IMG/VR virus record: IMGVR_UViG_2721755712_000006
Strand: one strand, 5' to 3'
Length of the DNA stretch: 19,786 nt
DNA from: a virus
Lineage: Duplodnaviria; Heunggongvirae; Uroviricota; Caudoviricetes
Of the stretch, positions 896-18,418 are shown in pieces. Made by a program: the position numbers and the translations under genes. Below the pieces are notes generated by a model. It searched no databases and had not been told where the DNA came from. It saw only the letters and a list, made by a program, of their open reading frames with translations. Numbering within the stretch: the first letter of the stretch is position 1; each line of letters opens with the position of its first letter.

Positions 896-1183
896 TTACT
901 GTCTCTGGCAATCTTTATCGCGATAACGCCTGAAATACCCTCTCGCTTCCTCATCCATACCAAGAGCCGAATGAGTCCGCTTAACTGCCTGTCTTAAATC
1001 TCCGAATCTGTCTGTAGTTGCTGGTGGGCGTGCCGCCTTACGGATACATTCAGAGCGTCTGTTTGCTGCATGTTCACGTTCTTTATCGCCATCTGCCAGC
1101 ATCATGACTTCTGCCCATCGTGCGGCAGCTCTCCGGTATAGCCCTTTTGACTCCAGTTCTTCAGCTTTCCTGTCCCTTATCAT
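896..1183 (-). CDS. Small PerC-family-like regulator (phage/island-associated)
   Basis: 95-aa ORF; N-terminal IRDRKAEELESKGLYRRAAARWAEVM resembles PerC/Pch-type small regulators as I recall them; basic C-terminus. Not verified by search. Confidence 0.4.
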   Translation of the reverse strand: MIRDRKAEELESKGLYRRAAARWAEVMMLADGDKEREHAANRRSECIRKAARPPATTDRFGDLRQAVKRTHSALGMDEEARGYFRRYRDKDCQRQ

Positions 1184-1219
1184 TTCTGCCTCTCAGATTA
1201 TATAGATAAGCAAAAAGGT

Positions 1220-1340
1220 GTTGGTTCAGTTGGTTCAGTTGGTTCAATTTGTAAAGATCGTTGTTTTTATTGTGTTTTTTCTGAAATATTGAACCAACAT
1301 CAACTCATTTTGAACCAACACAGCCCAGCTCTGAACCAAC
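1220..1340. repeat. Iteron cluster A (crr/ori-like): 3 tandem GTTGGTTCA plus 3 inverted TGAACCAAC at 21-bp spacing
   Basis: GTTGGTTCA at 1220..1228, 1229..1237, 1238..1246; TGAACCAAC at 1290..1298, 1311..1319, 1332..1340. Confidence 0.7.
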
Positions 1341-1394
1341 AACACAGCGATAGCTTTGTGATTGGTCCGTTATTTTCTGGCTGATATTTGAGCG

Positions 1395-1425
1395 TATAAC
1401 AGTGTTATACAGTGGTATACTGTAT
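1395..1425 (+). promoter_or_regulatory. Operator-like repeats upstream of the 1443 ORF
   Basis: Tandem TATAACAGTG / TTATACAGTG followed by inverted repeat ATACAG-N7-CTGTAT, just upstream of the start codon. Confidence 0.3.
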
Positions 1426-1442
1426 GGATATTACTCACTGAT

Positions 1443-1883
1443 ATGGTCTTTGCAATGAGCAAATCTAATCTGGTCGCGTTCCGCATCCCATCTGAATTGC
1501 AGGATGAGTTTAATCGGTCTGTTCTCGCTTCTGGAGGGGATAAAACCTCCTGGCTTGTTGATGCGATTCGCATGAAGCTGGGACAGCCGGAAAAGTCTAT
1601 TGATTCACGAATGCTTGGGCTGGTGGAGCGCATGGAAAAAGCCGCTGCGTCGCTTATTGCCGGAAAGCCGAACATCCCACCAAAGCCATATAACGAAACG
1701 GCAGTTATAAAGATCATTGCCGATACCATCCGACAGGGATTTGATAATGGGCGTGTGATAGCGGAACGGCTCAATGAAGCAGGCTACCAAACAAAAGCTG
1801 GTAAAGCGTGGGATAAAGACATTTACAGCGCGTGGAAGCGTCAGGGTAACAATATTAAAAGAATCAATACGCTGCTTCAGTAA
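1443..1883 (+). CDS. Hypothetical DNA-binding protein with N-terminal ribbon-helix-helix-like segment
   Basis: 146-aa ORF (alternative ATG at 1455). N-terminus NLVAFRIPSELQDEFNRSV...WLVDAIRMKL has an RHH (CopG/Arc-like) pattern; C-terminal LNEAGYQTKAGKAWDKDIYSAWKR resembles a recombinase-type DNA-binding helix. No clear SD. Confidence 0.5.
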   Translation: MVFAMSKSNLVAFRIPSELQDEFNRSVLASGGDKTSWLVDAIRMKLGQPEKSIDSRMLGLVERMEKAAASLIAGKPNIPPKPYNETAVIKIIADTIRQGFDNGRVIAERLNEAGYQTKAGKAWDKDIYSAWKRQGNNIKRINTLLQ

Positions 1884-1912
1884 TTGATCAGTGTATAAAT
1901 GATATTTATCGC

Positions 1913-2890
1913 TCAATCGCTCCCTTTCCGCCCTTCAGCTACAGGGTCGTTGTCGGCGATAACAAAACCTAAGTCCTGAGAGAATCTCTCTCGTGGGAAT
2001 CCTTTAGCAGGTAAACCCATTGAATCATATCCACATCCGGGAACATTTGGTTTAGAGTCAATAAGGTCTGCAATTTGCCGAAGCCATGTTGATCCCGGAC
2101 CAAGTCGTTTAACTAAGTACCAGATAATACAGATCGCGCTAAAAATCCTCTCGCAACTCTCTGGATGGAGATTAAGTCCGTCAAAGTATTCATTATCCGG
2201 TACTGGAACTCGGGGATGCTTTCTATTCCATATTCTGGAATGGTGAGCGCAACGATTCCTTATGAGATTAAGGCACTTCAACCATTTTGCAAATGTCTGC
2301 TTATTATCAATGCCAAAACGACGTATAATTTTCCCCTGCATATGACCATTAAGCATCGCATAATATTTAGACATCTGACCAAAATCCCAGGTCTCCACCG
2401 CCACCCAAAATGGAATCTCCTTGCCTTGGCTTCGATGCCATTCAATACAGTCATCTCTGCTTTCGTCTAATTTTACTTTTTGCTTATACACCCAATGCTC
2501 GAAGGCAGATGAGAATTTTGGATTAATGTATTTTGATGACATGTAGGCAAGTGGATCATTGCGACCAACCTCATGCGCGATGACTGAACGAACATGAATC
2601 TCTATTCTTTCGATAGCATCAATCATCAAAAGACGCAGTTTTTTGTCAAAAAGATATAGATCGTACGTCTTCTCGAAACTGGTACCAGCAAGAAATCGGT
2701 CTGTTCTGTACGAAAGACCTTTATCTGTTGTCGCAATAATTCTTGATGGGTACCAAAAACCTGACAATCGATAATATCCAACCTGCGACAGCTTACGTAT
2801 CGCACGATTTCGATCATTGATAATCATGCCACGTTCAAGTAGCAATCCTAGCAATTCGTGATAGTCCTTATGAGGCTTTGCGGCAATCAT
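1913..2890 (-). CDS. Abi_2 family abortive infection protein (AbiD/AbiF-like)
   Basis: Contains the hallmark NRCAHHSRIWN motif plus YYRLSGFWYP near the N-terminus. ORF track starts at a GTG at 2935; ATG at 2890 (MIAAKPHKDYHELL...) fits family N-termini better. Neither start has a good SD. Confidence 0.7.
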   Translation of the reverse strand: MIAAKPHKDYHELLGLLLERGMIINDRNRAIRKLSQVGYYRLSGFWYPSRIIATTDKGLSYRTDRFLAGTSFEKTYDLYLFDKKLRLLMIDAIERIEIHVRSVIAHEVGRNDPLAYMSSKYINPKFSSAFEHWVYKQKVKLDESRDDCIEWHRSQGKEIPFWVAVETWDFGQMSKYYAMLNGHMQGKIIRRFGIDNKQTFAKWLKCLNLIRNRCAHHSRIWNRKHPRVPVPDNEYFDGLNLHPESCERIFSAICIIWYLVKRLGPGSTWLRQIADLIDSKPNVPGCGYDSMGLPAKGFPRERFSQDLGFVIADNDPVAEGRKGSD

Positions 2891-2986
2891 AGTGGCGAAA
2901 CAAAAGATAATAAAAGGCCCGACCGTGAAACTCACATGCCTGAAATCGGCGGCGGAGAAACAGAGGATCGGGCTCGGTTGCCTGTA

Positions 2987-3014
2987 ACTCTATCCGAAGT
3001 TATCCACATGTCAA
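2987..3014 (-). promoter_or_regulatory. Candidate sigma70 promoter for the Abi gene
   Basis: On the minus strand TTGACA (rc of 3009..3014), 16-nt spacer, TAGAGT (rc of 2987..2992), upstream of the Abi start. Confidence 0.25.
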
Positions 3015-3060
3015 TGCACAGTTACTTAGGAAACTAACATAGATACTATCATCACTCACG

Positions 3061-3083
3061 AAAAACCACTATATGTGGTTTTT
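3061..3083. terminator. Hairpin with flanking A/T runs (possible bidirectional intrinsic terminator)
   Basis: aaaaaccac-tatat-gtggttttt perfect 9-bp stem, followed by tattcat on the plus strand. Confidence 0.3.
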
Positions 3084-3358
3084 ATTCATATCGTTATCCA
3101 CTACAGGCTGTGTCAATAACTTTTACCTATTAATTGGGTAATTTCTACATTTTCCTATGCTGGCTAGTTTCTCTACTGAAAAGTTGGCACTCCTTAATCG
3201 CTTTTCGGTTAATACTATCGGTCTTCATATTGCCAGCAGCATACGCCATCCGATAATTTCGATGCTACGCGCGCGTACTTGTCGCAAAATATCAGGCAAA
3301 GGCCAGATTCAGAACGTCGTGATAACCACCAGCACAACATGAGATGTCATGTAACACG

Positions 3359-3366
3359 ATTTATCA
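3359..3366. repeat. IS1 target site duplication, left copy (ATTTATCA)
   Basis: Identical 8-mer directly abuts both IS1 ends (3359..3366 and 4135..4142). Confidence 0.7.
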
Positions 3367-3421
3367 GGTGATGCTGCCAACTTACTGATTTAGTGTATGA
3401 TGGTGTTTTTGAGGTGCTCCA

Positions 3422-3697
3422 GTGGCTTCTGTTTCTATCAGCTGTCCCTCCTGTTCAGCTACTGACGGGGTGGTGCGTAACGGCAAAAGCACCGCCGGAC
3501 ATCAGCGCTATCTCTGCTCTCACTGCCGTAAAACATGGCAACTGCAGTTCACTTACACCGCTTCTCAACCCGGTACGCACCAGAAAATCATTGATATGGC
3601 CATGAATGGCGTTGGATGCCGGGCAACTGCCCGCATTATGGGCGTTGGCCTCAACACGGTTTTACGTCACTTAAAAAACTCAGGCCGCAGTCGGTAA
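3422..3697 (+). CDS. insA: IS1 InsA
   Basis: 91-aa product [43 protein letters not shown]... matches IS1 InsA. Confidence 0.9.
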
Positions 3698-4119
3698 CCT
3701 CGCGCATACAACCGGGCAGTGATGTGATTGTCTGCGCGGAAATGGACGAACAGTGGGGCTACGTCGGTGCTAAATCACGTCAGCGCTGGCTGTTTTACGC
3801 GTATGACAGGATACGGAGGACAGTTGTGGCGCACGTTTTCGGTGAACGCACTCTGGCCACACTGGCGCGTCTTCTGAGCCTGCTGTCGGCCTTTGAGGTC
3901 GTGGTATGGATGACGGATGGCTGGCCGCTGTATGAATCACGCCTGAAGGGAAAGCTGCACGTTATCAGCAAGCGTTACACTCAGCGCATTGAGCGACATA
4001 ATCTGAATCTGAGACAACATCTGGCAAGGCTGGGACGGAAGTCACTGTCGTTCTCAAAATCGGTGGAGCTGCATGACAAGGTCATCGGGCATTATCTGAA
4101 CATAAAACACTATCAGTAA
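3616..4119 (+). CDS. insB: IS1 InsB (transposase InsAB' by -1 frameshift)
   Basis: 167-aa product [27 protein letters not shown]... matches IS1 InsB with several substitutions relative to the canonical sequence as I remember it. Confidence 0.85.
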
Positions 4120-4134
4120 GTTGGAGTCACTACC

Positions 4135-4142
4135 ATTTATCA
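4135..4142. repeat. IS1 target site duplication, right copy (ATTTATCA)
   Basis: See left copy. Confidence 0.7.
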
Positions 4143-4535
4143 CATCAGATACATGTGATTGGTGTACCCGCATAAAACATCGTCATAGCGCGTCCTGTGC
4201 GCATATACGCCGATAATCAACACATCACCACCACTCTGTCTCGTGTAGAGAACAGTTTCATGGTATCCCCCGCCATCGTGTGCGTACTGGTCGGACGTAG
4301 TTGCAAAATTTTTGCAACTGATACCCCTCGCGCGCGTACTGGTCACGAAATTGGTGTTTTGCTGTGGCAGTGATATCAGAAAAATCTTCCTGTTTCACAT
4401 AAAGCGGATATGCGCGTACTGTAACGGCCCCATCAACGGGGATCGGATTTGAAATCCCGACCCAAGCTATGTACCAAATGCCATGTCTTGGATATATGAT
4501 GATTGCCATTCTAAACAACGCTAAAGGGGGTTGGT

Positions 4536-5150
4536 GTGAGCAGAAAAGATACTAAAGAATTGCTAACTATCTGCATGGTGTACTTTTCAATTTATTTTTG
4601 TGCATACATGGTAGTCCCAGATGAGTTTGAACATGGCAGTATTATTTATTCCATAACATTCTATTTTTTAGAGCTAACACCAATTTTGGCTATCCTTTTG
4701 GCAATACATATTTATTTTTCCTTAAAAAAAGAATCGACTAATTGGGAGAAGGTATGGAGAGACAGAGGATTTCTAACATCACCTAAAGATGATGCATATG
4801 AGAGTGATTTTTCTGACTTTATAACAAACTACTACTCCAGCGAACAATTCAAAAATAGACTGTCTGATGTTTGGGAAACAGCAATGTATTCCATAGGGAT
4901 TATATTATTGATACTTACTGGTATCGCTCAATATGTTTTTAACATTGACTTATCATTAAATCCTGAAAATTTAATATCGCCATTGATTTTTGGTGAGATA
5001 TTGATCTTCTCATTCGGAATTTTCTTGAGTGTTGTTCTCTGCTCATTATGCAAACTACTGACTAACAGGTATCCAGGTGAAGCAAGGAGAGCAAGAAAGG
5101 CAAATCCATATTATCTTTTATTTCCTAATGGAGACAGCAGAGATATCTAA
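4536..5150 (+). CDS. AT-rich integral membrane protein (about 4 predicted TM helices), unknown function
   Basis: GTG start preceded by AAAGGGGG SD. Hydrophobic stretches near residues 10-25, 40-60, 115-135, 147-170 (by eye). Roughly 30% GC against ~50% neighbours. Convergent with the 701-aa gene; stops 18 bp apart. Confidence 0.6.
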   Translation: MSRKDTKELLTICMVYFSIYFCAYMVVPDEFEHGSIIYSITFYFLELTPILAILLAIHIYFSLKKESTNWEKVWRDRGFLTSPKDDAYESDFSDFITNYYSSEQFKNRLSDVWETAMYSIGIILLILTGIAQYVFNIDLSLNPENLISPLIFGEILIFSFGIFLSVVLCSLCKLLTNRYPGEARRARKANPYYLLFPNGDSRDI

Positions 5151-5168
5151 GCCATCCATGGCTACCAG

Positions 5169-7274
5169 TTATTGAGCTTCTTTTTGTGATGCCTGTGCGA
5201 CTCTGGTGAGCGATTGTGTGACCGTACTGATCGCTCTGTCATATGCTGTGCTACCTTTTGGCGTATTTGCCAGACGTAACAAGGCATTTCGTATAACAGG
5301 GCTTTCGTATGCCTTCGCTGCTCCGCCTACGGCACCAGCAGCAGGAACAACAAACGCAGCCGTTTTTAGCATCCCCGCTAATACTGCTGCGTTTATGATG
5401 CCACCACCAACTAACAATCCATAAAGCTGCTGACCATTTAAGTTTTGAACGTTCGCTTTTGCCGCGTGTCTTGTATCGTTGAGGTATTTAATAACGCCGT
5501 CCAGTTCCTTTCCATGTACGCCTTTAAAGAAAGTTGCTGATTGCTTCCTGTTCCGGTGTAACGCATTAATAAACTTCTCAACACTGATATTTCCAGACGG
5601 ATCAGTCGCCTTATCTACAGCATTCTGAACTATGGCTGCTCGTGCGTTTTGCCTACCATTGTCATCCAGAAGCCTGTAAAGCTGAGAACGTTCTGATGGG
5701 CTTTGGCTAAAAACGAGTTTTGTTACATCCTCAGGCGTGGCCTTGCCGCTGGCTATTGCCTTTTGAACGCGCGTTCTTCCCATCATGTCATTGAATTTAG
5801 ACCATGAGCGATCAACCCTTGCCATATTAATGGCTTCGTCTGCTCCAAGATTTTTGGCTACGGCTTTTTTCATATCCGCCGTATATGCCTTGTAGATAAT
5901 ATCGCTGGCTTTCTGGAGCGTATCTTTATCAACAGTGTCAGATGACGCCATAAATCGCTTTCGAAGATCGGTTCTGTTTTCCCTCGCCAGACGCAGGTCA
6001 TTTGGTCCGCTGGTGATATCGTCTTTAAATTGCTGCAAGACTTTTACCGCGGCTCTATCCTGAGATTTGCCCGGGCGGCTTAACACGGCAATCTGATTGT
6101 CGATAGCTTTTACCGTGTTTGAGAGATCGACAGGGGTATCCCCCATAGCGTCAATTATGCGGTTATATCGCTTTCCTGCTGCCTCAATGAATTTTTGTTG
6201 CCCTTTAGTCGCAGATTCATAAAGCTGTTTATCAGAAATGCCACCCAGACCATCGCTAAATGTTCTGACTAAATTTTCTCGTGCTTGTTGTTGATTCAGC
6301 CGATTCTTACCGGTTCCAAAAAAAGGAACTCTTTCGCCTAATGTCTGAGCCTGACTCTGCATAAAGGTTTTATCTTTCAGCATGTCACTGGTCATTAACG
6401 GCAGATTTCTTTCCGATGCAAAGTCGACAGCAGCCTTTGCTTCAGGCGACATATCACCACGAACAGCCCTCGAAACCGCACTCGCTGTATTTTCCAGCCC
6501 CTTACCAATACCACCAATGCCAGCAGAAATTACCGTTTGTAACGGATCAATATCTTCTCCACCAGCAAGGCTGGTGGCTCCCTGTAGTGCTAAATCTGTA
6601 GCTGCTGATTTTCCTATGGCACTAAGCACCGTTCCAGCCCTGCCCGCTGGTGTAAACGCCAACGCATTAGCAAGAAACGAGGTCAGGTCTTGCGGTGATA
6701 AACCCGGCTTGTTCAGGGCATAATCACCTGATGGCAGAGAAACGATAGTATTCCCCTTCTCATCCTGCCTTAATGTCGCCCCCATTCCCTGAAGAATCTT
6801 TTCCTGAGACGCGTCAGAGCCGAAAAGTTGAGACCATCCAGCCTTTAGGGCATCCATGCTTAGTGAGTTCAATTCTGGGGCAGAGGCGACATTTTGCAGT
6901 CTCTCCATCTCTGGAGTCATTCGGCTTTCGCCTGTTATAGCATCGCGCATCGCAGCCCCAAGACTGGCTCCCTGTTCTGCTGAACGCTCAAGCCCCTCTC
7001 TTTGCTGAGTAGCTAACTTTGCATACCCTGACGCAAGAGAATTATCAGATGATGTATGTTGAATATTTTGAGTTGCTGATTGGGATCGGTCTATTTCATT
7101 CGTTGATGGTAGTGGATAGGCAGCATAAAAAGCCTGCTTAGCCTGCTCTACACTTTCTCCGGCTTGCGGGGCCACGACTTCATTGAAGTATTGCTCCTGA
7201 GCCTGCGCTTTTTGTTCTGGTGCTAACGCCTGATACTGTGGAGAGGCGATAACATCTTTCCATGCTTTAGCCAT
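5169..7274 (-). CDS. Large hypothetical protein (701 aa), Ala/Gln/Gly/Ser-rich helical, C-terminal Gly/Ala-rich hydrophobic segment
   Basis: Long ORF; ATG overlaps the stop of the upstream gene (TAATG); GGGGTG SD. Hydrophobic segment LYGLLVGGGIINAAVLAGMLKTAAFVVPAAGAVGGAAKAY near residues 617-656. No family recognised. Confidence 0.7.
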   Translation of the reverse strand: MAKAWKDVIASPQYQALAPEQKAQAQEQYFNEVVAPQAGESVEQAKQAFYAAYPLPSTNEIDRSQSATQNIQHTSSDNSLASGYAKLATQQREGLERSAEQGASLGAAMRDAITGESRMTPEMERLQNVASAPELNSLSMDALKAGWSQLFGSDASQEKILQGMGATLRQDEKGNTIVSLPSGDYALNKPGLSPQDLTSFLANALAFTPAGRAGTVLSAIGKSAATDLALQGATSLAGGEDIDPLQTVISAGIGGIGKGLENTASAVSRAVRGDMSPEAKAAVDFASERNLPLMTSDMLKDKTFMQSQAQTLGERVPFFGTGKNRLNQQQARENLVRTFSDGLGGISDKQLYESATKGQQKFIEAAGKRYNRIIDAMGDTPVDLSNTVKAIDNQIAVLSRPGKSQDRAAVKVLQQFKDDITSGPNDLRLARENRTDLRKRFMASSDTVDKDTLQKASDIIYKAYTADMKKAVAKNLGADEAINMARVDRSWSKFNDMMGRTRVQKAIASGKATPEDVTKLVFSQSPSERSQLYRLLDDNGRQNARAAIVQNAVDKATDPSGNISVEKFINALHRNRKQSATFFKGVHGKELDGVIKYLNDTRHAAKANVQNLNGQQLYGLLVGGGIINAAVLAGMLKTAAFVVPAAGAVGGAAKAYESPVIRNALLRLANTPKGSTAYDRAISTVTQSLTRVAQASQKEAQ

Positions 7275-8740
7275 TAATCACCCCATAGTGAAGAAAAGTT
7301 ACTGCTGGCTGCTGGCTGTGATACCTGCTCAGATTGCGGCAATGTCTGCGACGAAGAAGCAGTTCCTCTGTCAACTGCTGAAATAACCCGCAAAGCATCA
7401 TAAGTTCGACCAGAAGCAGCTTTCAGCGAATTGAACTGGTTTTCCATCTTCCGGCGCTTGGTATCAATGGTTTTTGTGGAATCACCAGGCTGAGGGAAAT
7501 ACATTTGATAATATTTGGACATTTCAGCTGGTAGGATAGATGCCCCTGTTTCCTGACGGAGTATTGCCATTATTGCGTCATTAGCATTAACAACGTATTG
7601 CTGCTCTGCTGGGCTGAGCGTTAAGTTAGCCAGCGTCCCATTACCCAAAGCATTATTAATGATCGCCACTCGCTGTGGGCTAAGCTGGTCTTTCAGTGTA
7701 TCTATTGAATCAAGAGCATCCCTAACCCTGTATGCAAATCCAGCAGCTTTTTTAGCCCCTTCTGGCGACTTTTCCATGATCTTTTGGGCTGTTGGCAAAG
7801 CTATTGGACGAAACCCATCTCCAGATATTGGCTGGTTTAGTTTTCCCTGCTCTTCACTTCCGTCTGTGTAGTATTTTGTGACAGTGCCATCATCGTTTTC
7901 TCTAACACTCATTAATTTTTTGGCGTTTGTATTAATTCCAGCCGCTGCCGCAAATGCCGCCGCCCCCTCTGGATCCGCCTTTAACATTTGAGCGTACTGA
8001 TTGTAATTCTGCATTGCTGCTGTTGGTGCATATGCTGACGTTAACGCATTTGCTCGGCTAATATCCTGCCCTCTCGCCTGAAGTGCTTCGCCAGCCTGAT
8101 TGCTGCGGATTGTCTCTGCCAACTTGCCACGCTCAATATCCCGACCTTCCATTTGATCTTTGATATCGAAATACTTCTCATGACCGAGAGAAAACAGCGC
8201 CAGATTACCTGCGAAATGCTGGAAGCCCTGCGGGTCATTAACCTGCATTTCAGCAATAGTTTCTGGAGGGATACCTAAACGACGCATCTCCTGCTCATTA
8301 TCCATCATGAACCTGCCAAATGCGCCCTGACCAAGCGATGAGGCTACCTGTGCTTTGAGCGCCAGATTGCCATAATCATCCCTTTGAGCATCATCGACAT
8401 AACTCATCCCTTTACGGACTTCCTCAAACTCTTCTGGGAATGCTGTAATAAGATTACGCATCTGCTCCCTGTCACCGGACGCATAAGCATCTGCATAAGC
8501 TTTCTGGAATGCCGCTTTACGCTCCTGCTGTTGCTGCTGCTTATAAATATCAGCAACGCCAGCCAGACCACGAAGACCTGTCAGAGCAACGTTATTTGCA
8601 CCTGAGCGAGCCAGTTCATTGTTTTCGCGGATCAGACCAAGCGTTGCGTTAATGTCGCTTGCCTTTGGCGCATTCTCATTTTGCGTACCGATGCCAGCCA
8701 GAAAACCACCAGAATTAATACCCTGTTGCCACGTAGCCAT
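7274..8740 (-). CDS. Large hypothetical protein (~488 aa from ATG at 8740; 492 aa from GTG at 8752), low-complexity Ala/Gln-rich
   Basis: Long ORF translationally coupled to the 701-aa gene; poly-Gln run and Ala-rich tracts; no catalytic motif recognised. Confidence 0.7.
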   Translation of the reverse strand: MATWQQGINSGGFLAGIGTQNENAPKASDINATLGLIRENNELARSGANNVALTGLRGLAGVADIYKQQQQQERKAAFQKAYADAYASGDREQMRNLITAFPEEFEEVRKGMSYVDDAQRDDYGNLALKAQVASSLGQGAFGRFMMDNEQEMRRLGIPPETIAEMQVNDPQGFQHFAGNLALFSLGHEKYFDIKDQMEGRDIERGKLAETIRSNQAGEALQARGQDISRANALTSAYAPTAAMQNYNQYAQMLKADPEGAAAFAAAAGINTNAKKLMSVRENDDGTVTKYYTDGSEEQGKLNQPISGDGFRPIALPTAQKIMEKSPEGAKKAAGFAYRVRDALDSIDTLKDQLSPQRVAIINNALGNGTLANLTLSPAEQQYVVNANDAIMAILRQETGASILPAEMSKYYQMYFPQPGDSTKTIDTKRRKMENQFNSLKAASGRTYDALRVISAVDRGTASSSQTLPQSEQVSQPAASSNFSSLWGD

Positions 8741-8758
8741 TGATTTACCCACGTCCAG

Positions 8759-8917
8759 TTAAAGTGTAAGCCAGCGCCTTATCCATTAATCCCCGAGCAA
8801 TTTCGTGGATCGTTGGCGCAACTCCTACCTCTGATTTTTTACGCTGCTCCTCCTGAATTTTCTTTATCGCTTCCATTTGCTTCTCACTTATCAATACTGG
8901 CTTTACTGAAATAGCCA
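8759..8917 (-). CDS. Small protein (52 aa), possibly ribbon-helix-helix DNA-binding; first gene of the cargo operon
   Basis: Not in the ORF track (under 60 aa). ATG at 8917 with strong SD AAGGGGG; product MAISVKPVLISEKQMEAIKKIQEEQRKKSEVGVAPTIHEIARGLMDKALAYT; stop 6 nt before the next gene's GTG. Confidence 0.45.
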
Positions 8918-9011
8918 TAACGCCCCCTTAGAACTGTATAAAACAACAGTCATTATAGTTTCATAAAACGCAACATTCATCATTGTGATTGCAAAATATG
9001 AAACAAATAGC

Positions 9012-9044
9012 ACAAAAAAATGCCACCGTTCAGTAGCTGGTGGC
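9012..9044 (-). terminator. Intrinsic terminator for the 152-aa gene
   Basis: On the minus strand: GCCACC-11 nt loop-GGTGGC (rc of 9022..9044) followed by a T7 run (rc of 9014..9020). Confidence 0.5.
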
Positions 9045-9098
9045 ATCGTTCTGTATGTCAGGTTTTGACAGTTTTTTTATGGACTCTAAAAACTATAT

Positions 9099-9557
9099 TT
9101 ATGGAGTCGCATTACTCTTCATGGCGTGAGCTTTCCTGTTCTCTCTTTGTTCCTGGTTCCATGGATAAGTGTAATTGCCACCAGCAAAGACCATATTGAT
9201 TTTGTGAGGAACCATTAAAGCGATATCAGCACTCATGTCACTGAATGAAACACAGTGCAGACGTTCAAGCCATTTGTATGCTGCTGCCGCTTCTCCCCAC
9301 AAATTAATCCCTGCAAGTTCAACAATATCTCTGATGGAGCAGATATCAACCATCCCGTTAACGCCTGTAAAACGGCGTTTAAAGTCGCCAAGATACTTTC
9401 TGAAAAGAGTTGCTTTCATTGGTTCAGAAAGGTCTATGTATGGGAACACAACCACATCAAGCAGCATCTCCCTTCTGTTGTTCATCGGTATTACAGATGG
9501 CAAATCGGATACTTTGCCAAATACATGATGAAAAGCCTTTGCGATTATCTTCATCAT
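9099..9557 (-). CDS. Hypothetical protein (~152 aa), orphan cargo gene next to the iteron array
   Basis: ORF MMKIIAKAFHHVFGKVSDLP...; GGGAGA SD upstream of tandem ATGs; own terminator downstream. No family recognised. Confidence 0.5.
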   Translation of the reverse strand: MMKIIAKAFHHVFGKVSDLPSVIPMNNRREMLLDVVVFPYIDLSEPMKATLFRKYLGDFKRRFTGVNGMVDICSIRDIVELAGINLWGEAAAAYKWLERLHCVSFSDMSADIALMVPHKINMVFAGGNYTYPWNQEQRENRKAHAMKSNATP

Positions 9558-9643
9558 CAATCTCCCACTGAAACCAGTGATGTGGTGTTCAGATTTCGTA
9601 AAACACTCTCTAATGCCAGCCAGATGTTGTGCTCATCAATTCA

Positions 9644-9754
9644 GTCACGTTGTGTTGGTTCAAAATGCCGTGTTGTTGGTTCAGTGTTGGTTCAATAAAA
9701 AGAATAAAATCCTTATAAAACAATACTCTTTACAAATTGAACCAACTGAACCAA
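9644..9754. repeat. Iteron cluster B (putative replication origin downstream of the primase gene)
   Basis: GTTGGTTCA at 9644..9652, 9665..9673, 9676..9684; three tandem TGAACCAAC at 9728..9754. Segment 9717..9761 is the exact reverse complement of 1213..1257. Confidence 0.7.
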
Positions 9755-9789
9755 CTGAACCAACACCTTTTCTACGCACATGAAGAAGC

Positions 9790-15900: not shown

Positions 15901-16332
15901 TTAGGCGGCGTTAAACGCGTCCGGGTAGAGTTTCAGAATGTCGGCAATTTCCTGCTGAGAAAGTCCGTTGTGATCATTTATGTTCGCAAGATGGTTAATA
16001 TGAGTGATCACTTTCAGAACATCACCACGGCAGGAGAAACGGTAGCGAAGGTGTGTTCCGATACCATCAGGATTCTTTTCGTCGATACGCTCCAGAGTGA
16101 TTCCGAGCTGGCGTTCTAACTCTGTTGCATAGTTACGACCAGAAGACAGACGGCAGTAGCGAAGAATGTCATTTTCTGTCCATCCCTCTATACCAGTACG
16201 CAGCATATAGACTCGGGCACGATGCTTTTTCGGCGTGCGCTTTGGTGCTTGAAGGGATTTTGTCAGGGGCGTAACATCAGATACGCGAATATCTGAATTA
16301 GCCGCCTGTAATGGGCGGTTTTTCTTTTCCAT
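15901..16332 (-). CDS. Hypothetical protein (143 aa), translationally coupled to alpA
   Basis: ATG overlaps the alpA stop (ATGA); basic N-terminus; no family recognised. Confidence 0.5.
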   Translation of the reverse strand: MEKKNRPLQAANSDIRVSDVTPLTKSLQAPKRTPKKHRARVYMLRTGIEGWTENDILRYCRLSSGRNYATELERQLGITLERIDEKNPDGIGTHLRYRFSCRGDVLKVITHINHLANINDHNGLSQQEIADILKLYPDAFNAA

Positions 16333-16535
16333 CAGGCCACCTCGTCTCTAGATTCTAATATACACTTCTCAATCCATTCATCTATTTCAGACTCAACAAA
16401 AGCAATTGCCCGACTTCCAATTTTTACCTGTTTAGGGAACCTCCCCTGACTAATAAGACGATAAATCCATGCTTTGCTATAACCAGTTCGCCTTTGAACT
16501 TCAGAGAGACGAATTAATGAATTGTAATTAGCCAT
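16332..16535 (-). CDS. alpA: AlpA-family phage regulatory / excisionase-like HTH protein
   Basis: 67 aa; LIRLSEVQRRTGYSKAWIYRLISQGRFPKQVKIGSRAIAFVESEIDEWI is a typical AlpA pattern. Confidence 0.85.
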   Translation of the reverse strand: MANYNSLIRLSEVQRRTGYSKAWIYRLISQGRFPKQVKIGSRAIAFVESEIDEWIEKCILESRDEVA

Positions 16536-16962: not shown

Positions 16963-18177
16963 TCATGCGTGTTTTTCAAACACCATATGCACCACATTTC
17001 CGCCATGCTCGAGAGAATCCATATAGTCGGCATACCATTGAAGCATCTCCCGCCGTCCATCCAGATATTGCGCATGGTTGTATGTGCCACGAATTGAGTT
17101 CTTATCAACGTGAGCGAGCTGCGTTTCTATCCACGCGGTGTTATAGCCCTGCTCATGCAAAATCGTGCTCATAGTGTGTCGGAACCCATGACCAGTTACA
17201 CGTCCAGCGTAGCCAATGCGCTTAAACACTTGGTTTATGCTGGCCTCACTCATTGTTTTCCTTGGATCATTGCGCCCGGGAAACATAAGAGGGTAATTGC
17301 CTGTTATTTCTCTAATCTTCCCAATAAGCGAAAGAGCCTGCTCAGACAATGGCACAATATGAGGCCGCCGCATTTTCATACGTGAAGCGGGTATCTCCCA
17401 TATAGCCTTGTTGAAATCAATTTCATCCCATAATGCGCCACGTAGTTCGCCAGTTCGCAAGCCGGTGATAATCAGTAGGCGAGCCGCCATAACAACCAAT
17501 GCGCTTCCTGAGTAACTGGATAATGCCTTGAAAAAATCAGGTAATTCTTTGGTCGTAAGGAAAGGGTAATGATTAGATTCATGGCCTTGCATCGCGCTAG
17601 TAAGGTCTGGTGCAGGGTTATACTCTGCGCGACCAGTGACTATTGCATAGCGGAAAACTTCCCCGCACCGCTGCCTCACTTTTTTGGCTTTTTCTGTCGC
17701 ACCGCGCCCCTCGATGCGCCGCAGCACATTCAGAAGTTCAAGTGGTTTGATTTCGGCGATTGGTTTTTTGCCAATGTAAGGGAACACATCTTTGTTGAAG
17801 GCTTCGAGGATGTCTGAAGCATAACCAGCAGACCATTTTTTTAATTTGCTGCTGTGCCACTCAAGGGCAATATCTTTGAAGGTGTTGTTTAACTGCGTTT
17901 CCCGGGCAATCTTTTCCTCTCGTTTCGCTTCCATCGGATCGATACCACCAGCGATACCTCTTTTCGCATCTTCACGTTTTGCCCGAGCATCGGCTAGAGT
18001 AACCTCAGGATACACACCTAGTGCCAATAGCTTCTCTTTACCTGCTACACGATATTTAAGTCGCCAGTATTTACCTCCATTAGGTTTTACCAAGAGATAC
18101 AAACCGCCACCATCGGCCAGCTTGTAAGCCTTCTCTTTTGGCTTGGCTGTGTCTATTTGACGGGCATTGAGTTTCAC
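16963..18177 (-). CDS. P4-type tyrosine integrase (site-specific recombinase)
   Basis: 404 aa; N-terminal arm-binding region LYLLVKPNGGKYWRLKYR; C-terminal catalytic region with HGFRHT and final Tyr region; GTG start with GGAGG SD; adjacent to the tRNA. Confidence 0.9.
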   Translation of the reverse strand: MKLNARQIDTAKPKEKAYKLADGGGLYLLVKPNGGKYWRLKYRVAGKEKLLALGVYPEVTLADARAKREDAKRGIAGGIDPMEAKREEKIARETQLNNTFKDIALEWHSSKLKKWSAGYASDILEAFNKDVFPYIGKKPIAEIKPLELLNVLRRIEGRGATEKAKKVRQRCGEVFRYAIVTGRAEYNPAPDLTSAMQGHESNHYPFLTTKELPDFFKALSSYSGSALVVMAARLLIITGLRTGELRGALWDEIDFNKAIWEIPASRMKMRRPHIVPLSEQALSLIGKIREITGNYPLMFPGRNDPRKTMSEASINQVFKRIGYAGRVTGHGFRHTMSTILHEQGYNTAWIETQLAHVDKNSIRGTYNHAQYLDGRREMLQWYADYMDSLEHGGNVVHMVFEKHA

Positions 18178-18208: not shown

Positions 18209-18326
18209 ATACCCCCATAAGTACCCCCATCTGACCGTAGATTTTGAGGGACTTTAGTAGACGTCAAAAGACGAACGGGGCTTTAATACGTGGATTATAA
18301 GGGGTTTTGAAAGACTTTAGTAGACT
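18209..18326. repeat. att-proximal arm-type repeats (right end)
   Basis: aatacccccataagtacccccat at 18209..18230; two direct copies of GACTTTAGTAGAC at 18250..18262 and 18313..18325. Confidence 0.45.
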
Positions 18327-18342: not shown

Positions 18343-18418
18343 TGGTGCCGATAATAGGAGTCGAACCTACGACCTTCGCATTACGAATGCGCTGCTCTAC
18401 CAACTGAGCTATATCGGC
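18343..18418 (-). tRNA. thrW: tRNA-Thr (anticodon CGU)
   Basis: Reverse complement reads GCCGATATAGCTCAGTTGGTAGAGCAGCGCATTCGTAATGCGAAGGTCGTAGGTTCGACTCCTATTATCGGCACCA: 76 nt with encoded CCA and a GGTTCGA T-loop. Confidence 0.95.

Follow-up and report, generated by a model that had tools for sequence, protein, structure and literature searches.

In Gram-negative phage-inducible chromosomal islands (PICIs) the replication origin lies directly 3′ of the pri-rep gene and consists of two sets of iterons around an AT-rich region, an arrangement that has been validated for EcCICFT073 (Fillol-Salom et al. 2018, PMC6092414). The Rep proteins of pathogenicity islands from Staphylococcus aureus (SaPIs) use a C-terminal winged helix to read iterons that flank an AT-rich centre and are located directly 3′ of rep (Qiao et al. 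2022, PMC9371898). In the satellite P4 the crr region is found directly 3′ of the alpha gene and ori is 4.7 kb away, with the same type-1 repeats in both. Here we analyse IMG/VR record IMGVR_UViG_2721755712_000006, a stretch of 19,786 nucleotides (the window) that represents an Escherichia coli chromosomal island between the tRNA-Thr gene thrW, beside proA, and the remnant of a LysR gene. The island carries two iteron clusters in mirror-image arrangement: cluster R (9654-9771), directly 3′ of pri-rep, and cluster L, next to a PerC gene on the other side of the cargo. We propose that L and R are probably a duplicated (split) PICI origin, and that L is still a working Rep-binding replication element.

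Two opposed iteron clusters and the Pri-Rep replicase

The sequence TTGGTTCA occurs 13 times in the window against an expectation of 0.87, a count reached in none of 200 shuffles, and 12 of the 13 copies fall inside clusters L and R. The 45-mer AAAAGGTGTTGGTTCAGTTGGTTCAGTTGGTTCAATTTGTAAAGA at 1213-1257 returns as its exact reverse complement at 9727-9771. An earlier note on this DNA had reported this perfect inverted pair, but its right arm, given as 9717-9761, was off by 10 nucleotides. Imperfect inverted-repeat arms extend over 55 nt (1213-1267 and 9717-9771, 95% identity), and homology between L and R remains recognizable beyond the arms for ~135 bp.

In both clusters three 9-bp iterons abut one another, and an AT-rich spacer of 42 bp (17-21% GC, compared with a window mean of 47%) separates them from three spaced iterons (Table 1). 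The latter, already seen by the earlier note as three more iterons inward in each cluster, were found again; the note had missed that they are oriented opposite to the abutting triplet of their own cluster. The distance from the triplet to the first spaced iteron is 53 bp in L, in R and in their relatives. As expected for iterons, the word is present in multiple copies at helical-turn spacing, has an AT-rich neighbour and co-varies with the initiator, and each cluster reads as a complete origin-like unit by itself. A scan detected no DnaA boxes near L or R, which fits a self-loading initiator, and consensus scans called neither sigma-70 promoters nor terminators in either cluster.

The N-terminal residues 7-361 of Pri-Rep share 33% identity with the primase domain of P4 alpha (E 2e-41). 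Residues 402-813 match PDB entry 8tch_A, a staphylococcal 'Pathogenicity island protein' (E 1.1e-11), and also the Cch helicase of the staphylococcal cassette chromosome SCCmec (5dgk_A, E 0.009). The 8tch and 5dgk proteins are self-loading initiator helicases of the SaPI Rep family, and the helicase core of Pri-Rep is thus homologous to that of SaPI-Rep-type initiators.

We collected 80 loci encoding relatives of the replicase, one genome per species, and scored the 58 that are full-length. All but about five of these have an iteron array that begins ~25 bp beyond the stop codon. From one replicase lineage to another the iteron word changes, with at least 12 words among the 58 relatives (GAACCAAC, GAGACAAC, TAACCCGT, GAACCGAC, GGTACAAC, GTGTGTCA, TGGGATAA, GGTGTAAC, TGGTAACA, GTACTACA, AAACCGAC and GTAACCAC). 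An E. coli replicase that is 79% identical to Pri-Rep (locus L004) is accompanied by the word TTGTCTCA in the same layout and spacing as in the window. When replicases of the GAACCAAC and GAGACAAC types were compared, only five of ~918 alignment columns differed consistently (823, 891-893 and 910), which places all specificity-linked residues at the extreme C-terminus. An AlphaFold model of residues 700-918 displays a beta-alpha-alpha-beta-beta succession at 848-908, with residues 891-893 inside it; the succession is compatible with a winged helix but unreliable, as the predicted local distance difference test score (pLDDT) of the model is 55.7. Pri-Rep most likely recognizes the 9-bp word GTTGGTTCA via its extreme C-terminus. 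The tie between the iterons and an alpha-like protein that the earlier note had drawn is borne out by the co-variation of word and replicase across genera and by the fixed group differences in the C-terminus.

Contiguous and proposed split mirror origins

The counts of origin classes that follow were read from array coordinates and are approximate; a script for automatic classification took the iteron pair spaced by 11 bp for a tandem array. About 35 of the 58 relatives possess a second tandem triplet within 170-370 bp, in the orientation opposite to the first. Loci L018, L029, L031, L033 and L034 display two adjacent mirror half-origins, each with an AT trough, and use five different words, so the type of the distal half also co-varies with the replicase. 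The experimentally validated EcCICFT073 origin likewise has inverted tandem repeats at both ends. In contiguous dyads (L031 and L034 from Morganella, L029 from Pseudomonas, L006 from Enterobacter, and EcCICFT073) the units of the window recur in identical order and at identical spacing, with the inverted triplets at the outer ends, but the halves are 100-250 bp apart.

In most relatives the single contiguous dyad origin measures 200-370 bp. The halves are ~0.5 kb apart in Vitreoscilla, and separations of 6-10 kb are found in the window, in E. coli loci L086 and L088, and in Cedecea, Pantoea, Chimaeribacter, Leclercia and Lonsdalea, the last with a degenerate version. The mirror pair is best understood as the ancestral origin design of this replicase family, which is usually contiguous.

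Alignment of the halves from E. coli, Cedecea, Pantoea, Chimaeribacter, Leclercia, Lonsdalea and Rosenbergiella showed invariant iterons in both halves, whereas the spacers drift. The aligned halves retain their own iteron spacings, 11/21 in the proximal and 21/21 in the distal half, in addition to the constant 53 bp between the triplet and the nearest spaced iteron. Invariant iterons, drifting spacers and half-specific spacings together indicate an old split and constraint on both halves.

The perfect 45-bp identity between the arms is lineage-specific: E. coli has it in full and Cedecea almost in full, whereas Pantoea and Chimaeribacter lack it. In Ecol_244, L and R are identical over ~55 bp despite a different distal allele. 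Homogenization of the outer arms was seen in the window, L086 and L040 and not in L021 or L025. Arm identity within lineages, including Ecol_244 with its different distal allele, suggests occasional gene conversion between the L and R arms.

Candidate roles of the distal cluster

In the reading that we consider probable, R is the canonical PICI origin directly 3′ of pri-rep, and L is the second, mirror-image half of an origin that most relatives keep as one contiguous dyad. Rep oligomers would bind both sides of the AT-rich stretch, melt it and load themselves. L would provide a second initiation site, which Rep-mediated looping might pair with R, and binding of Rep at L may also couple PerC expression to replication. 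The accessory DNA between the halves would consist of a captured P22-type block of late genes and a variable defence slot. Rep binding, firing at L, looping and promoter coupling are inferred from the sequence, and firing, crr-like enhancement of R and copy restraint are all candidate roles of L. Only tentatively do we put forward the more far-reaching proposal that the split mirror origin is a functional design, in which two Rep-loading sites placed nearly opposite each other on the 17.8-kb circle cooperate over kilobases by looping or dual firing, and in which a complete orphan L would let an island with a different replicase be replicated in trans by the Rep of a co-resident island.

Several observations weigh against a split origin with a working L. 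About 150 E. coli genomes keep L at 98.7-100% identity beside a DUF5906-type replicase with GGTAYAGGT iterons. In four relatives (L016, L019, L027 and L028) the 10 kb examined contained a proximal half alone, and the distal half may therefore be dispensable. The C-terminal model of Pri-Rep is of low confidence, and a winged-helix fold is not established. Finally, the validated PICI origin of EcCICFT073 belongs to a Pri-Rep variant that differs from the allele in the window.

The orphan copies bear on how the two halves move. DNA resembling cluster L is present in 564 genomes, and the cognate replicase with R in 413. In L002 and L003, L is located beside PerC at 98.7-100% identity and the replicase is of the DUF5906 type. 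The presence of orphan L beside such a replicase indicates that the replicase and the proximal half move as one module while the distal half stays behind, and that L can persist without its cognate Rep in cis. The replicase swaps appear recent, and an orphan L consequently neither proves nor disproves function.

The same genomes qualify the suggestion of the earlier note that the clusters bracket a modular cassette. The cargo between the halves does vary between islands: orf153 alternates with gp14 and a gp7-like gene, the Abi gene alternates with ImmA/IrrE or small open reading frames (ORFs), and the insertion sequence (IS) elements differ. However, the pair is not obligatory, since the ~150 genomes combine L, without R, with similar cargo and another type of replicase. 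The note itself had named related elements with one cluster and the same cargo as counter-evidence.

A strict P4-style split would make one cluster the start site and the other a crr-like enhancer required in cis, both being obligatory and paired by a Rep loop. The P4 arrangement described above, the primase domain that the window replicase shares with alpha, and the retention of both mirror halves in most relatives are consistent with such a split, as is the finding that the cognate replicase and R were accompanied by L in all 25 of the E. coli genomes sampled. In contrast, each half, with an AT trough of its own, forms a complete origin-like unit, four relatives are proximal-only within 10 kb, and the helicase and DNA-binding part of the replicase is unrelated to alpha. 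We regard this alternative as rather unlikely. The resemblance to the P4 ori/crr pair that the earlier note had pointed out holds formally, in that a replicase-proximal iteron region is combined with a distal one, but the element is of the PICI type and only the primase domain is alpha-like.

L could instead be a locus of negative copy control that titrates Rep or handcuffs the origin, like incA of P1 or incC of F. A second iteron cluster flanking a gene is the classical control layout in iteron plasmids. Uncontrolled replication of EcCICFT073 harms the host cell (PMC6092414). However, L has an AT-rich region between opposed iterons at conserved spacing, something that control arrays do not normally possess, and PICIs replicate in a burst after induction and not at a steady copy number. 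Copy control as the function of L therefore seems improbable to us.

We give equally little credence to L being mainly a transcriptional operator of the divergent PerC and 146-aa genes, bound by Rep or another island protein and without a role in replication. L fills the divergent intergenic region and remains beside PerC after a replicase swap. Reading by eye, we found a TATAAT at 1202-1197 on the minus strand, upstream of PerC and 17 nt beyond the outermost L iteron; there is no -35 element, and the outer triplet of L sits where the -35 of this putative PerC promoter would be. A TATATAA motif is similarly placed beyond the distal triplet in the contiguous origins L029, L031 and L034. Rep occupancy may, in the split-origin reading too, gate outward transcription towards PerC. 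On the other side, the consensus scan called no promoter upstream of PerC, the 146-aa gene has different operator-like repeats of its own, and an operator would leave the conserved AT spacer, the inner iterons and their spacing unexplained.

A poor prospect, too, is that L is a decaying relic without present function, such as an origin left behind by a second island now gone. Orphan L copies are found beside a non-cognate replicase, the L002 copy has five of six iterons, and the Lonsdalea copy (L015) is degenerate. However, iterons are invariant and spacers free across genera whose replicases are 62-78% identical, the distal spacing is conserved, and no remnant of a replicase gene was found beside L.

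The earlier note had also considered the repeats as a substrate for inversion or recombination. Searching 5,426 complete E. coli genomes with the predicted recombinant (inversion) junction gave 550 matching genomes; none of these spans the junction, the best coverage being 55% and on one side only, so no inversion isomer exists among the 550. Inverted repeats that serve recombination, by inverting the cargo or by anchoring cassette swaps, are accordingly very unlikely: the inverted identity of 45-55 bp, perfect or nearly so, the arm homogenization suggestive of gene conversion in some lineages and the differing cargo would suit them, but the inversion junction was never covered and the conserved flanking genes are equally good anchors.

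The host island and its place among known replicons

The gene content assigns the window to the Gram-negative PICIs, as an EcCI-type island at thrW, and not to the P4 type. The integrase gene is at one end beside a specific att site, an alpA-type regulator is found downstream of int, and the genes run mostly in one direction, all those from int through the gp16-like gene being on the minus strand. The pri-rep gene is followed by an origin with two iteron sets around an AT-rich region, and accessory and late genes (Abi, ejection and PerC) are located 3′ of this origin. At ~17.8 kb the island falls into the 10-20 kb size range of PICIs (PMC10111431). Pfam and PHROG scans of the window ORFs detected no capsid or terS family. 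Three of the five SatelliteFinder core components are present, corresponding to 'Type C' in the scheme of PMC10085698. The backbone shared with the Gram-negative PICIs of Fillol-Salom et al. 2018 (PMC6092414) comprises int, alpA, DUF4222, pri-rep, the origin, PerC and captured late genes; the same work describes PICI-borne PerC and the yicC-dinD attachment site, which is used by sister islands of the window. In contrast, neither the psu-delta-sid operon nor epsilon of P4 was found in the window, and tblastn of the P4 proteins matched only int, the N-terminus of alpha and a 'cI' ORF (Ash region). Pri-Rep does not qualify as an alpha-type replicase either, since beyond residues 7-361 the remaining 560 aa are without similarity to alpha.

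Table 1. Coordinates of features in the 19,786-nt window.
Feature	Position	Strand	Remarks
Distal att repeat tggtgcgataatagga	540-555		Matches the tRNA 3′ end at 18344-18360; the pair bounds the ~17.8-kb island
PerC gene	896-1183	-	Read outward from L; Pfam PF06069
L outer arm, perfect 45-bp inverted repeat	1213-1257		Reverse complement of 9727-9771
L abutting 9-bp iterons GTTGGTTCAG/GTTGGTTCAG/GTTGGTTCAA	1220-1247	+	Invariant in distal halves from six genera
L AT-rich spacer	1248-1289		21% GC; presumed melting region
L three spaced iterons TGAACCAAC	1289-1340	-	Starts 1290/1311/1332, spacing 21/21 bp, typical of distal halves at all split loci
146-aa gene	1443-1883	+	Inward from L; N-terminus ribbon-helix-helix-like by eye, no fold or domain match
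Abi_2 abortive-infection gene	1913-2935	-	Pfam/PHROG scans
IS1 copy	3367-4134		Complete (InsA/InsB); Pfam/PHROG scans
SieA-like gene	4536-5150	+	Weak match; Pfam/PHROG scans
P22 gp16-like ejection gene	5169-7274	-	Pfam/PHROG scans
P22 gp20-like ejection gene	7274-8752	-	Pfam/PHROG scans
orf57	8745-8918	-	Cargo ORF
orf153	9099-9560	-	Cargo ORF; inward-pointing from R
R three spaced iterons	9654-9695	+	Starts 9655/9676/9687, spacing 21/11 bp, typical of proximal halves in all relatives
R AT-rich spacer	9696-9737		17% GC
R three abutting 9-bp iterons	9737-9764	-	Word scan
R outer arm, perfect 45-bp inverted repeat	9727-9771		19 bp from the replicase stop codon
Pri-Rep gene, 918 aa	9790-12546	-	Presumed iteron-binding initiator; Zn-ribbon, Toprim_3, DUF927 (E 3.5e-47), C-terminal DNA-binding region
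alpA-type regulator	16332-16535	-	PICI hallmark; PF05930, E 7e-20
Tyrosine integrase	16963-18177	-	Adjoins tRNA-Thr (18343-18418)

On the tRNA side the minus strand also carries a PM1773-family gene, AntA/B, DUF4222, an Ash-family gene and several small ORFs. A direct repeat ATACCCCCA(A/T)AAGTACCCCCA is found at 615-635 and 18209-18229, just inside both island ends, and may represent arm-type binding sites of the integrase. On the excised circle of ~17.8 kb the halves at 1213 and 9771 would lie almost opposite each other, separated by arcs of 8.56 and 9.25 kb.

Inward-pointing genes do stand beside both clusters, as the earlier note had reported, but they are not homologous to each other. A duplicated module of iterons plus gene was rejected on these grounds. 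The note had also placed all accessory genes between the repeats; the Abi, IS1, SieA-like and ejection genes are indeed inside, but PerC is outside. Homologues of the 146-aa gene adjoin the distal half in Cedecea, Pantoea, Chimaeribacter and Lonsdalea. We also considered the 146-aa protein as the iteron binder and rejected it: operator-like repeats of its own (GTTATACAG) are located at ~1396-1425 upstream of its gene, and homologues are also encoded by islands that use other words and lack a distal cluster. The direct repeats GTATAACAGTGTTATACAGTGGTATAC at 1396-1425, kept as TGTCTTACA or TGTTATACA near homologues in other genera, are probably the operator of the 146-aa protein itself.

In sister islands the slot of the Abi_2 gene holds ImmA/IrrE with a hypothetical gene, or small ORFs, and this position beside the 146-aa gene, just inside the distal half, therefore looks like a defence hot spot. 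Strain E70, the closest genome, has an island that is 100% identical except that it lacks the IS1 copy. The P22-type block at 4536-8752 is contiguous, and comparable blocks are found at L003:18146-22804 and L088:12516-20347. Sister islands add gp14 (DUF2824) and a gp7-like gene, in an order that mirrors 14-7-20-16-sieA of P22. The make-up of the block suggests wholesale capture from a P22-like helper, and the ejection genes hint that the helper of this island is itself P22-like.

The proximal cluster is a known kind of feature. A literature search, whose coverage was incomplete especially for subscription journals, returned no description of the distal mirror copy, of the dyad design or of these iterons. 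PICI origins have been described as one compact unit after pri-rep; the relatives collected here would make the origin a dyad of mirror half-origins in a large family, in Enterobacterales and beyond. Halves that are 6-10 kb apart and still intact across genera raise the question of whether a self-loading helicase initiator can act at two distant sites or through a loop, as P4 alpha does with ori and crr. At least 12 iteron words, with a change mapped to a few C-terminal residues (891-893), would offer a handle for building satellite replicons that are orthogonal to each other, and for foreseeing which co-resident islands might cross-replicate. In practice, the variable accessory and defence region of these islands can be delimited by the paired clusters. 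If the functional design proposed above were true, orphan origins would amount to origin sharing, or piracy, among satellites, and the halves would frame a slot in which a satellite captures late genes of its helper together with defence genes.

With the described PICI and SaPI origins the window shares the position 3′ of pri-rep, the opposed iterons around an AT-rich region and the fusion of a primase to a helicase of the self-loading type. A second mirror copy, complete and 8.45 kb distant at the other end of the accessory region, sets it apart, as do iterons of 9 bp, compared with penta- or hexanucleotides in SaPIs.

P4 and the window each have two separated regions that share replicase-binding repeats, the first directly behind the replicase gene and the second at a distance of kilobases, and their N-terminal primase domains are homologous. 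In P4, however, the two regions enclose the replicase and early genes, where the window has cargo, and crr consists of two direct 120-bp repeats and does not mirror ori. The helicase and DNA-binding parts, two-thirds of the window replicase, are unrelated to alpha, and the window lacks sid, delta, psu and epsilon. A Tatumella replicase with the same N-terminal primase domain (L051) is followed, at +22 to +235 from its stop codon, by the word GGTGAACA, which equals the annotated type-1 repeat of P4 (TGTTCACC).

The DUF5906 PICI replicon (L002 and L003 in E. coli, L056 in Buttiauxella) shares the N-terminal primase domain (86% identity over the first 340 aa), the island backbone and the use of two iteron clusters that bracket genes. 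It differs in the helicase and DNA-binding part and in the iteron, GGTAYAGGT, and its clusters are 1.1 kb apart around two small genes. Iterons of this replicon (GGTAYAGGT / CTGTACCA) are located at L002:22014-22109 and 23118-23220, and in L056 at +41 to +127 and +1183 to +1278 from the replicase stop.

Iteron plasmids also distribute clusters of sites for one initiator over kilobases and connect them by looping or handcuffing, as in P1 (incC/incA), F (incB/incC) and R6K (alpha/gamma/beta). Their initiators are of the RepA or Pi type and recruit the host helicase DnaB. In contrast, the initiator of the window would itself be the helicase, and each of its two clusters resembles a full origin.

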